64,000 nucleotides of DNA. It comes from Chitinophaga pinensis (GTDB lineage: Bacteria > Bacteroidota > Bacteroidia > 2-12-FULL-35-15). The position numbers and the translations under genes are program-made. Location of the stretch: assembly GCA_945865315.1 (NCBI GenBank), contig CAMBDK010000001.1, positions 4,378 to 68,377 on the forward strand. The letters are read 5' to 3'. A model generated the notes under the pieces. The model worked only from the letters and a program-made list of their open reading frames with translations. It was not told the DNA's origin and ran no database searches. Shown here piece by piece: positions 26,600 through 28,969 of this stretch. Position 1 is the first letter of the stretch; the number at the start of each line of letters is the position of its first letter.

Positions 26600-27070
26600 A
26601 TGAAAACGATACACCAGTGGCTATCTGAATATGGTGAAAGCCATCAGAATAAAACAAATAAAACTATTCACTGGATTTGTGTACCTCTTATTATGTTTAG
26701 TTTGGTAGGACTATTGTGGTCAATTCCTAAACCGGAAATTTTTAACAAGGCTGAATTTCCTTTTAATTTTGGTGTTGTTTTTATGGTTTTAGCATTGTTT
26801 TATTATATGTTTTTATCCTGGCGTTTAGCAATAGGGATGTTCTTTGTTTTATTAGGTTTACTTCTTGGCAATTTTTACTTATCAATGCTCGGAAATACTT
26901 GCTTATGTATTATTTCCATTATTATTTTTGTAATTGCATGGGTGGGGCAGTTTATTGGTCATAACATTGAAGGAAAAAAACCGTCTTTTTTAAAAGACCT
27001 GCTGTTTTTATTGATAGGGCCTGTATGGCTTTTAAGTTTTATTTATAAAAAATTAAACATCCCATTTTAA
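26600..27070 (+). CDS. DUF962 / Mpo1-like small membrane protein (second paralog)
   Basis: N-terminal ..YGESHQNKTNKTIHWICVPLIMFS.. then 3-4 TM helices. Same family pattern as 22550..22873. Confidence 0.45.
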   Translation: MKTIHQWLSEYGESHQNKTNKTIHWICVPLIMFSLVGLLWSIPKPEIFNKAEFPFNFGVVFMVLALFYYMFLSWRLAIGMFFVLLGLLLGNFYLSMLGNTCLCIISIIIFVIAWVGQFIGHNIEGKKPSFLKDLLFLLIGPVWLLSFIYKKLNIPF

Positions 27071-27080
27071 ATTGGTTTCT

Positions 27081-28031
27081 ATGCGATTGTTTTTATTTGG
27101 TTTTATTTTATTTCCTTTTTCAATGAATGCACAGATGCTTCAGATACAAAATCCGCTAAGGTTTTTATCCTTAGGCGACTCCTATACCATTGGCCAAAAT
27201 GTTCCTGCTAATAATACATGGCCAGCTCAATTAAAAGATTCATTATTATCAAGAGGTTATACTTTAGATACTACCCAAATTATTGCAACTACAGGATGGA
27301 CTACCAATAACTTAATTAATGCTATTGACAATCAGGGGCTCGAAAATAAAAACTTTAATCTAGTTTCATTATTAATAGGTGTTAATAATCAATACCAGGG
27401 GATTTCATTAAATCAATTTAATATAGAATTCCCTCAACTTATTGATTCGGCTATTCGGTATGCTGGTGGAGACAAAAATCGTGTTTTTATTGTTTCGATA
27501 CCAGATTACGCCTATACACCTTTTGGACAAGCAGGCGGAAATGCGACACAAATAAGCTTGCAAATTGACCAATATAATGCCATCAGCAAAAATTTTGCGG
27601 ATAATTTAAATATAAAATATTTTGACATTACCCCAATTTCTAGGCAGGGTTTAATACAAACGGACTTGGTTGCTAATGATGGCTTACATCCCTCTGCAAA
27701 GCAATATGGCATGTGGGTTGAGTTAATGCTTCAATATATTGACAGTATTAATATAATTACAATTGAAGTTTTGGCAAATAAAGATACTGGACTTAATATT
27801 TTTCCTAACCCCGTTAAGGATTTTATTTATTTCGACCTTCCTATGAAAGAGATACCTGCTTCATTTGAAGTCAAACTTTTTTCAATGGAAGGGAAATTTA
27901 TAAAGTCTGAAATTTTAACTGAAAGCAAACAGAAGCTTTTAGTGAAGAACCTAAATAATGGATTTTATTTATTAAATATTTCGAACAAAAATGGTGTTAA
28001 TATGAATTTAAAAATTTCTAAAGTCGAATGA
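27081..28031 (+). CDS. SGNH/GDSL-family esterase/lipase with T9SS type-A (Por_Secre_tail) C-terminal domain
   Basis: LSLGDSYT (GDSx block I), GVNN, and DGLHPS (block V) motifs. C-terminal ~80 aa (FPNPVKDFIYFDL..GFYLLNI..) is a type-A T9SS sorting domain. The ORF track starts at a TTG at 27072; the ATG at 27081 (MRLFLFGFILFPFSMNAQ) is preferred. Confidence 0.65.
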   Translation: MRLFLFGFILFPFSMNAQMLQIQNPLRFLSLGDSYTIGQNVPANNTWPAQLKDSLLSRGYTLDTTQIIATTGWTTNNLINAIDNQGLENKNFNLVSLLIGVNNQYQGISLNQFNIEFPQLIDSAIRYAGGDKNRVFIVSIPDYAYTPFGQAGGNATQISLQIDQYNAISKNFADNLNIKYFDITPISRQGLIQTDLVANDGLHPSAKQYGMWVELMLQYIDSINIITIEVLANKDTGLNIFPNPVKDFIYFDLPMKEIPASFEVKLFSMEGKFIKSEILTESKQKLLVKNLNNGFYLLNISNKNGVNMNLKISKVE

Positions 28032-28969
28032 TATTTTGTAAAAAAATAATAATTCAATTGTGTAAAAAAAAACTGTTCCCACTGTTCTGTATCTTTTTTC
28101 TTTTCCTAAATAATATAAATATTGCAAACTCACAGTCAAGTTTGCCGTCAGACCAGGAGCAGAAATTAAACATACTCACATGGAATCTTTATATGCGTCC
28201 TCGTACAGTTTTTAAAAATGGCCAGGTGTCTAGAGCTTATGCTATTGTTGAACAGCTGAAAAATAAAAATTATGATGTAATTGTATTCCAAGAAGCGTTT
28301 GACAACAAGTCCAGAAAAATTATTTGGAATGGACTAAAAAAACAATTTCCTTTTAAATCGGACCAACCAAAACACAAATATTTTTATAAAATTAGTACTG
28401 GTATTTTTATAATCAGCAAACTTCCGATAAATGTTATTGATAATATTTATTTTTCAATTTGTGGTGGCTCCGACTGCTATGCTGTTAAGGGTGCTGTTCT
28501 TGTTGATGTTGTCAAAAATGGTCATAAAGTTCAAATTATTGGCACACATTTGCAGTCGGCTGATGGAAAAAAAATGACTGGAGAGGAAATTCGTCAAATT
28601 CAATATATGGAAATTAAAAATAAATTAATGACCCCATATGAAGAAAAAGGGGTGCCTCAGTTTTTTGCTGGTGATTTAAATATTCCTAAAGATGATAAAA
28701 AAGAATATGAGCAAATGCTTGCATTGATGGATGTTGAGGATGGAGAAATTTCTGGAGAAAATCAGTTTTCTTCCGGTGGAGGAGGGCTGAACGATTTACA
28801 AAACCATAAAAACAAAGCTCGTATAATAGATTATATTTTATGTAGAAATAATGGCTCTAATGTTAGATTTACTCAAAGATGTGTGAAAATTTTTCAACAA
28901 CGTTGGAGCAAAAAAAACAAAGACCTTTCCGATCATTATGCTGTGTTGGCAGAAATTGCAATAAAATAA
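28028..28969 (+). CDS. Secreted endonuclease/exonuclease/phosphatase-fold enzyme, sphingomyelinase C-like
   Basis: Collinear with bacterial neutral sphingomyelinase C: TWNLYM (THNVYM), DVIVFQEAFDN (DVVILNEVFDN), GTHLQ, GDLNIP, IDYIL, SDHYAV (SDHYPV). Signal peptide present. 4-nt overlap with the upstream GDSL gene. Confidence 0.6.
   Translation: MIFCKKIIIQLCKKKLFPLFCIFFLFLNNINIANSQSSLPSDQEQKLNILTWNLYMRPRTVFKNGQVSRAYAIVEQLKNKNYDVIVFQEAFDNKSRKIIWNGLKKQFPFKSDQPKHKYFYKISTGIFIISKLPINVIDNIYFSICGGSDCYAVKGAVLVDVVKNGHKVQIIGTHLQSADGKKMTGEEIRQIQYMEIKNKLMTPYEEKGVPQFFAGDLNIPKDDKKEYEQMLALMDVEDGEISGENQFSSGGGGLNDLQNHKNKARIIDYILCRNNGSNVRFTQRCVKIFQQRWSKKNKDLSDHYAVLAEIAIK

Follow-up and report, generated by a model that had tools for sequence, protein, structure and literature searches.

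Bacterial sphingomyelinases of the C type (SMase C) are secreted phosphodiesterases that hydrolyze sphingomyelin to ceramide and phosphocholine. They have the endonuclease/exonuclease/phosphatase (EEP) fold, a four-layer α/β sandwich, and the characterized members of the group come from Gram-positive pathogens. In two of them, Bc-SMase from Bacillus cereus and β-toxin from Staphylococcus aureus, membrane binding is mediated by a hydrophobic β-hairpin with exposed aromatic residues. A second enzyme of sphingolipid metabolism, the yeast DUF962 protein Mpo1 (YGL010W), is an Fe(II)-dependent dioxygenase that acts on 2-hydroxy fatty acids in phytosphingosine breakdown, and an assay for the α-oxidation of these acids by Mpo1 has been described (PMC10398889). 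Bacterial sphingolipid synthesis, which involves serine palmitoyltransferase (SPT, encoded by spt), bCerS and CerR, was worked out only recently (PMC11087976, PMC11334938); the three genes often cluster in bacteria, but usually do not in sphingolipid-producing Bacteroidota (PMC11334938). Our literature search returned no work on the degradation or remodelling of endogenous sphingolipids by bacteria, on the function of bacterial DUF962 proteins or on SMase-like enzymes of Bacteroidota, including the many proteins that are annotated as ‘sphingomyelin phosphodiesterase’ in metagenome-assembled genomes (MAGs) from this phylum. Here we describe three adjacent genes at positions 26600-28969 of a 64,000-nucleotide stretch of Chitinophaga pinensis DNA (assembly GCA_945865315.1, contig CAMBDK010000001.1, forward strand positions 4,378 to 68,377; the whole stretch is referred to as the window). 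They encode a DUF962/Mpo1-like membrane protein, a secreted GDSL esterase and an EEP-fold enzyme related to SMase C, and a preliminary description of the locus proposed that they form a module for the turnover of lipid or sphingolipid head groups and acyl chains. All of the component families are known; what is new is a Bacteroidota subfamily of SMase C-like enzymes that lacks the hairpin, and the recurrent pairing of its genes with genes for DUF962 and DUF1571 proteins beside an SPT cluster.

The third gene (28028-28969, + strand), an open reading frame (ORF) of 313 codons, encodes an enzyme of the SMase C lineage, as judged by profile searches, catalytic residues and predicted fold. Its product matches the general Exo_endo_phos profile (1.5e-9), and its sole strong match in NCBIfam is to the sphingomyelin phosphodiesterase model TIGR03395 (1.9e-34), which it covers from position 2 to 285 of 286. 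In sequence searches of the PDB the best matches are β-toxin, SmcL from Listeria and Bc-SMase, with a hairpin-deletion mutant of β-toxin as the top single-sequence match. A family profile built from 54 members was run against solved structures, and it detected bacterial SMase C chains with E-values of 1e-36 to 1e-48, as compared to 5e-11 for human neutral sphingomyelinase 1 (nSMase1), 1e-8 for nocturnin, 1e-5 for TDP2 and >0.05 for inositol 5-phosphatases. The AlphaFold2 (AF2) model of the enzyme (pLDDT 89.4, pTM 0.84) leads to the same grouping, as the first 16 Foldseek matches are all bacterial SMase C structures (E-values of 3.5e-22 to 1.3e-17, TM scores of 0.74-0.80 by target length), followed by human nSMase1 and, further down, TDP2 and others. 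Sequence alignments with bacterial SMase C enzymes are collinear over the full length at 24-27% identity, and the residues N53, E89, H174, D216, N218, D268, D302 and H303, which are invariant in all 54 sequences, align with the catalytic and metal-binding residues of β-toxin, SmcL and Bc-SMase. The collinearity asserted in the preliminary description is thus borne out, the motifs it quoted (TWNLYM, DVIVFQEAFDN, GTHLQ, GDLN and SDHYAV) are all present in the translation, and neither the profiles nor Foldseek group the protein with nucleases or inositol phosphatases. Close homologues are named ‘sphingomyelin phosphodiesterase’ by NCBI.

Although the enzyme resembles Bc-SMase, SmcL, β-toxin and the SMase C of Streptomyces griseocarneus in its fold, its catalytic Asn/Glu/His/Asp/Asn/Asp-His set and its Sec signal, it differs from them in several ways. 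Its TIGR03395 score of 119.4 bits lies below the equivalog cut-off of 248.2. In addition, the β-hairpin tip expected of an SMase is missing, as 7 residues are absent from the EEP family at this point in profile alignments; the residues opposite the gap are ‘tvtswfq’ in Bc-SMase, ‘svkswfk’ in SmcL and ‘dvyaaay’ in the F277A/P278A mutant of β-toxin (PDB 3i41). At this site the window enzyme reads W-SKKNKDL-SDHY, where a basic KKNK stretch precedes the SDHY motif. Two more loops are short in the family, by ~10 residues after YPYQ and by ~7 after GTHLQ. The substrate of the enzyme is putative, its hosts are free-living uncultured Bacteroidota as opposed to Gram-positive pathogens, and its gene has DUF962 and DUF1571 genes as partners. 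The low score and the three shortened loops could be taken to indicate a secreted enzyme that shares only the fold with SMases and acts as a nuclease or as a sugar/nucleotide phosphatase, particularly as homology to an SMase is no guarantee of its activity: a Ralstonia acid-sphingomyelinase-like protein, which belongs to a different fold family, hydrolyzes ATP and not sphingomyelin (PMC4140839). We consider a non-lipid substrate very improbable, as the E-values of the profile, whose match to bacterial SMase C is full-length, favor these enzymes over any nuclease or phosphatase by more than 25 orders of magnitude, all of the 16 best structural matches are bacterial SMase C enzymes, and the complete SMase C catalytic residue set is invariant.

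The EEP enzyme is probably exported to the periplasm by the Sec pathway, as predicted from a signal peptide that spans approximately residues 1-37. A hydrophobic N-terminal signal is present in 78 of 80 homologues, and none of the homologues inspected carries a tail for the type IX secretion system (T9SS). One protein (L030; loci are denoted here by L numbers) seemingly lacks the signal that is present in L040 and L043, which are closely related to it, and we treat this case as a start-codon or sequence problem.

The first gene (26600-27070, + strand; 156 amino acids) encodes an integral membrane protein of the DUF962/Mpo1-like family that we refer to as the long type. It matches PF06127 with an E-value of 4.5e-20 (72 bits, cut-off 24) in an alignment that runs from position 1 to 94 of the 95-position model and contains a central insertion, and its hydrophobic segments (residues 25-43, 55-94, 101-119 and 130-148) would form approximately four to five helices. 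Among 11 long-type orthologues, H15, H24, H121 and E124 do not vary, and H15, H24 and E124 are invariant across the long type and a second, short type of DUF962 protein; the third histidine is located four residues later in the long type (GQFxGH as compared to GH). These His and Glu residues are candidates for an Fe(II) site, although the equivalence with the yeast enzyme is drawn from conservation within the family only. No solved structure was matched by sequence, and an AF2 model built with short-type homologues is poor (pLDDT 69, pTM 0.41), also at residues 121-124. The protein is therefore like yeast Mpo1 in being a small multi-helix membrane protein of family PF06127 with conserved His and Glu positions and, in some relatives, with sphingolipid-type genes nearby. 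It is unlike Mpo1 in being a bacterial protein of putative activity from a family whose bacterial members are mostly unlinked to sphingolipid genes.

The neighborhoods of EEP genes were surveyed using one genome per GTDB species, which yielded 387 relatives, and the best 80 loci were examined. All 80 are from uncultured Bacteroidota, except for one MAG labelled Bifidobacteriaceae (L049). The three-gene arrangement is not a conserved unit and is confined to one species: no esterase gene adjoins the EEP gene within 6-10 kb in any of the 80 loci, the sole exception being a weak match of 25% identity located 5 kb away. The arrangement itself is genuine, as it recurs in six independent metagenome assemblies of one species at 99.6-99.96% nucleotide identity, which rules out an assembly artefact. 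A DUF962 gene that seemed to be truncated by mutation in one assembly (L166) proved to be interrupted by a scaffold gap of N.

The gene that is missing elsewhere, the second of the three (27081-28031, + strand, with an alternative TTG start at 27072; 316 or 319 amino acids), encodes an SGNH/GDSL esterase with a T9SS type A tail. The protein matches Lipase_GDSL_2 (PF13472; 5e-19, 69.9 bits, cut-off 32.9), and its translation contains the SGNH blocks LGDSYT, TTGW, GVNN and DGLHP, with Ser37 in the GDS motif (numbered as in the 319-residue form). Residues 243-317 of this form match the C-terminal sorting domain model TIGR04183 (35.7 bits, cut-off 23), as for other T9SS type A cargo, and the tail also matches Por_Secre_tail (PF18962; 7e-11, 42.6 bits, cut-off 27). 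On this basis the esterase is predicted to be exported by the T9SS to the cell surface or the medium. Its GDSL and DxxH blocks are like those of E. coli TesA and lysophospholipase L1, and weak matches connect it to PRK10528 (2.3e-4) and to lysophospholipase L1 (PDB 7pzg). It differs from TesA in that its predicted route is T9SS export and not the periplasm, and in that its score of 20.9 bits is far below the TesA equivalog cut-off of 270. The family is very large in Bacteroidota, with at least 8000 matches, and the closest homologues outside the species (63% and 57% identity) stand in unrelated contexts, adjoining either MoaA or a T9SS Ig-like protein with GatB and DnaG. Foreign origin of the gene was considered and is unsupported, as its GC content, GC3 and codon usage match those of the neighboring genes. 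It is most likely a general secreted esterase or lysophospholipase that is a co-expressed add-on in this species and lies outside of the conserved system. The proposal that all three genes form a module consequently fails at its middle member.

What is conserved is the pair formed by the first and third genes. The commonest neighbor of the EEP gene is the gene for a long-type DUF962 protein, which is found in 17 of the 80 loci and always on the same strand; among the 65 loci whose upstream and downstream flanks are both good, 13 have it. Two gene orders occur. DUF962 precedes EEP in nine relatives of the window (L001-L004, L008 and L010-L013) and in L030, L040, L043 and L062, with gaps of ~30-200 nt, whereas in L018, L029, L032 and L033 the order is EEP-DUF1571-DUF962, with overlapping stops and starts; over all of these loci the spacing between neighboring genes ranges from a 14-nt overlap to ~200 nt. 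On the DUF962 tree as well as on the EEP tree, the linked genes fall into three clades, all of which belong to one EEP branch. Within the window clade the pair persists while its flanks vary, as an SPT cluster, a ureide cluster or a T9SS protein may lie upstream, and aroA may be present or absent downstream. Because the window EEP gene is nested on the EEP tree among loci in which the DUF962 gene directly precedes it, the simplest history is that the esterase gene was inserted into an existing pair in this lineage only.

Gene neighborhoods of this kind can also arise without a functional unit, if the gene order is simply inherited, the insertion was a matter of chance, and a housekeeping DUF962 protein, a general esterase and a phosphodiesterase each act independently. 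The restriction of the trio to one species would fit such an explanation, as would the loss of the DUF962-EEP adjacency in five members of the window clade (L005, L006, L007, L009 and L014). So would the destinations of the three products, which share no compartment, as the esterase is routed by the T9SS to the surface or medium, the EEP enzyme by Sec only, and the DUF962 protein to the inner membrane. Moreover, DUF962 genes are mostly unlinked to EEP genes. In a reciprocal scan of metagenomes, which contained more than 589 long-type DUF962 genes, no EEP gene was found near any of the best 80 loci (52 of which had a flank of 1.5 kb or more on one side), and the contigs spanned a GC content of 27-69%; the rarity of the link and this broad spread indicate that DUF962 has a function independent of EEP. 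The gene for epoxyqueuosine reductase (QueG; TIGR00276, 343.6 bits), an unrelated enzyme of tRNA modification, provides a control. It is a divergent upstream neighbor of EEP in 12 loci of one other clade, of Chitinophagales type (including L038, L053, L054, L056, L060, L061, L064, L065, L075, L078 and L079), an equally frequent association, so inherited synteny alone can yield counts of the size seen for DUF962. What sets DUF962 apart from QueG is that its genes lie on the same strand with operon-like spacing, occur in two orders and three clades, and stay together through changes of both flanks, while QueG is divergent and limited to one clade. The genes in the window have also remained packed after the insertion, with a gap of 1-10 nt and a 4-nt overlap. 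We therefore regard the absence of any functional unit as unlikely, and functional coupling of DUF962 and EEP as somewhat more probable than its absence; the evidence is suggestive and falls short of proof.

A separate pattern emerged from the Bacteroidota-like contigs of the reciprocal scan (loci L081-L160). The usual upstream neighbor of the long-type DUF962 gene in these contigs, seen in 16 loci (L119, 7338-7937, is an example), is a same-strand gene for a DUF4442 hot-dog-type protein. The DUF962 gene is followed by a gene for an uncharacterized protein of ~230-310 amino acids and then by a glycosyltransferase-like gene.

The connection of the pair to sphingolipids comes from four of its nearest relatives (L002, L003, L012 and L013), whose EEP proteins are 70-72% identical to that of the window. 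In these loci, genes for SPT, a GNAT-like protein of 372 amino acids and an NAD-epimerase/SDR protein are located divergently upstream of the DUF962-EEP pair, and the SPT scores 684.6 bits against NF047600, above the equivalog cut-off of 640. GNAT-like and NAD-epimerase/SDR proteins are the protein families of bCerS and CerR, respectively. The arrangement thus resembles the Caulobacter-type Spt-bCerS-CerR cluster, as the SPT, GNAT-like and epimerase/SDR genes are adjacent to one another and additionally stand beside the pair; unlike these loci, the window itself has no such cluster. Other α-oxoamine synthases near EEP genes were not counted as SPT: one is a glycine C-acetyltransferase (KBL; L051), two are ambiguous (L006 and L077), and one is SPT-like but scores below the cut-off (L042). 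The idea that the locus serves sphingolipid turnover hence survives in part, since the DUF962-EEP pair adjoins an SPT cluster in the closest relatives, while the esterase does not belong to it.

Taken together, we give even chances to a reading in which an older DUF962-EEP pair, which recurs in one branch of Bacteroidota, functions in sphingolipid or lyso-phospholipid turnover and the esterase gene is an insertion particular to this species. Once exported to the periplasm or envelope, the Mg-dependent EEP enzyme would release the phospho-head group of a phospholipid that is either ceramide-based or of lyso type. Ceramide phosphoethanolamine, ceramide phosphoinositol and sphingomyelin-like lipids, either the cell's own or taken up, are the candidate substrates, and the reaction would yield ceramide and a phospho-alcohol. 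By analogy with yeast Mpo1, the membrane-bound DUF962 protein would oxidatively shorten 2-hydroxy fatty acids that are released further downstream. Ceramide phospholipids of the Sphingobacterium type carry 2-hydroxy iso-fatty acids, which would provide a substrate for an Mpo1-like enzyme. Only in this species would the esterase gene have entered the pair, and it would now be co-expressed with the DUF962 and EEP genes. Of this reading, the sequences show the gene order, the domain families, the intact catalytic residues, the SMase C-like fold, the export signals and the conservation of the pair as opposed to the trio, while the substrates, the coupling of the two proteins and co-transcription are inferred.

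Several observations weigh against turnover of this kind, in addition to the sub-equivalog score and missing hairpin tip of the EEP enzyme, the empty reciprocal scan and the QueG control. The four loci with an SPT cluster amount to effectively one independent observation, as the proteins of the cluster share 94-98% identity, their GNAT-like and epimerase genes are likened to those of bCerS and CerR by protein family, and no SPT gene is present in the 64-kb window. The route of acyl-chain turnover is incomplete, as no ceramidase is present. Furthermore, the positive-inside rule makes a cytoplasmic position probable for the conserved His and Glu residues of the DUF962 protein, whereas the EEP enzyme is exported, and the sites of action of the two proteins are probably separated by the inner membrane. 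Lastly, one member of the window clade (L014, 5746-10939; EEP 63% identical) has no DUF962 gene, and its EEP gene is preceded on the same strand by genes for an S1/P1 nuclease, a type I phosphodiesterase/nucleotide pyrophosphatase and a major facilitator (MFS) transporter, a context that resembles, and points to, phosphate scavenging.

The L014 locus suggests an alternative in which the EEP enzyme is a phospholipase C that acts on foreign lipids, such as sphingomyelin, ceramide phosphoethanolamine, plant glycosyl inositol phosphoryl ceramides or lyso-phospholipids, as a source of phosphorus or carbon. The T9SS esterase would have been recruited here to strip acyl chains outside of the cell, and the adjacency of DUF962 would reflect shared regulation of lipid salvage as opposed to turnover of endogenous sphingolipids. 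Use of phospho(inositol)lipids as a phosphorus source by Bacteroidota, via dedicated phospholipase C loci, has been reported (bioRxiv 10.64898/2026.09.03.749221). Scavenging would also be in keeping with the predicted export of nearly all EEP homologues, with the T9SS tail of the esterase, and with the presence of two EEP paralogues in several genomes. These paralogues are divergent and occupy different contigs or chromosome positions (L017/L074, L024/L068, L025/L059 and L020/L069); these MAGs combine a paralogue of the EEP-DUF1571 type with one from a more distant clade. We nevertheless consider scavenging rather improbable. The context seen in L014 is not repeated elsewhere, the three genes in the window are not flanked by a TonB-dependent transporter, SusD-like protein, alkaline phosphatase or Pho-type regulator, and the absence of the hairpin tip speaks against attack on intact foreign membranes. 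The SPT cluster beside the pair in the nearest relatives, moreover, fits endogenous lipids better.

Turnover of endogenous lipids by the pair may involve an additional component. A gene for a DUF1571 protein, which contains a LysM-like stretch, is located directly 3’ of the EEP gene in 12 loci (in the L018-L034 range), and in four of these it lies between the EEP and DUF962 genes. In the window, two tandem DUF1571 paralogues (46558-47469 and 47515-48384) are located 18 kb from the EEP gene; our literature search found no paper on DUF1571. A more elaborate proposal, which we hold to be tentative and in its full form unlikely, is that the SMase-C-like EEP enzyme, the Mpo1-type DUF962 protein and, in many relatives, a LolA-like DUF1571 carrier constitute an endogenous route of sphingolipid remodelling or catabolism in Bacteroidota. 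Head groups would be removed in the periplasm, the ceramide would be handed to the carrier, and 2-hydroxy chains would be α-oxidized at the inner membrane. If true, this would be the first pathway to be described for the turnover of endogenous sphingolipids in bacteria, and it would provide the first function for a bacterial DUF962 protein.

A further arrangement was noted in one clade (L020 and L022-L025), where the EEP and DUF1571 genes are followed by genes for an FAD amine-oxidase-like protein (~550 amino acids) and a Haemolysin-III/PAQR membrane protein (PF03006), ~900-3300 nt 3’ of the EEP gene. PAQR receptors have ceramidase activity, and the PAQR gene may be another hint of ceramide metabolism.

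At the level of gene organization, the preliminary description is accurate, as the ORFs and junctions read directly from the DNA confirm three same-strand genes separated by a gap of 1-10 nt and a 4-nt overlap, and Pfam and NCBIfam profiles confirm its three domain assignments (PF06127, Lipase_GDSL_2 with a T9SS type A tail, and TIGR03395). The DUF962 stop codon (TAA, 27068-27070) is separated from the esterase gene by 1 nt if translation of the latter starts at TTG 27072, and by 10 nt if it starts at ATG 27081. The esterase stop codon (TGA, 28029-28031) overlaps the EEP start codon (ATG, 28028-28030) in the sequence ATGA. A public gene caller chose ATG 27081 for the esterase and ATG 28028 for EEP. 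The latter start carries a caveat, as the EEP proteins of relatives align only from approximately residue 11 of the window protein, which corresponds to TTG 28058; a start at this codon would replace the 4-nt overlap with a 26-nt gap. The three genes are a probable single transcription unit. A possible intrinsic terminator, which would close the unit, consists of a weak hairpin with eight consecutive T residues after it (28972-28995, + strand); the region 28955-29010 folds at -8.1 kcal/mol (z = -2.05), although a consensus terminator scan did not call the structure. Folding revealed no comparable hairpin between the three genes. Upstream, the 137-nt gap before position 26600 does not contain the Bacteroidota-type TAnnTTTG motif, and a sigma-70 consensus scan was uninformative (26 sites, as compared to 25.5 in shuffled sequences). 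Rfam and tRNA scans of the window gave no match. The next gene (29086-30042), 116 nt 3’ of the EEP gene, encodes an NMO/FabK-like homologue of enoyl-ACP reductase II that scores 311 bits against TIGR03151, below the cut-off of 453. In relatives, aroA stands on the opposite strand between the EEP and FabK-like genes, and because it intervenes there we consider the FabK-like gene to form a unit of its own; the window has no aroA at this position.

The window contains a second DUF962 gene, which the preliminary description correctly placed within a neighboring ureide cluster. It encodes a short-type protein (22550-22873, + strand; 107 amino acids; PF06127, 5e-32, 110 bits) that is 27% identical to the long-type protein. 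The cluster (19315-26462) comprises genes for a PuuD-type membrane urate oxidase (- strand), allantoinase, the short DUF962 protein, allantoicase, OHCU decarboxylase, HIU hydrolase and a DUF6986 protein, and it encodes a complete route from urate to ureidoglycolate. The short DUF962 gene is also located between the allantoinase and allantoicase genes in two other species (L175 and L176; 70% identity), although this placement is not kept in three further homologues. Because the gene recurs in the ureide clusters of other species, we assign it to purine catabolism and not to the system of the long-type gene. No ureidoglycolate lyase, hydrolase or dehydrogenase was seen in the cluster. Ureidoglycolate is a 2-hydroxy acid and Mpo1 oxidatively decarboxylates 2-hydroxy acids; it is pure speculation, by this analogy, that the short DUF962 protein might act on ureidoglycolate. 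The DUF6986 protein (25020-26462; PF22484, 2.4e-170), whose gene ends the cluster in the window, L175 and L176, weakly matches HpcH/HpaI aldolase and the TIM barrel of malate synthase, and it is a candidate glyoxylate- or ureidoglycolate-handling enzyme.

The analysis corrects the first reading of this locus, as the esterase is an add-on of one species and not a member of a conserved module. The DUF962 and SMase-like genes that remain, in their position beside an SPT cluster, represent a concrete and testable candidate for sphingolipid degradation or remodelling in bacteria, and the existence of an SMase C subfamily without the membrane-inserting hairpin bears on how the substrate is presented to the enzyme.

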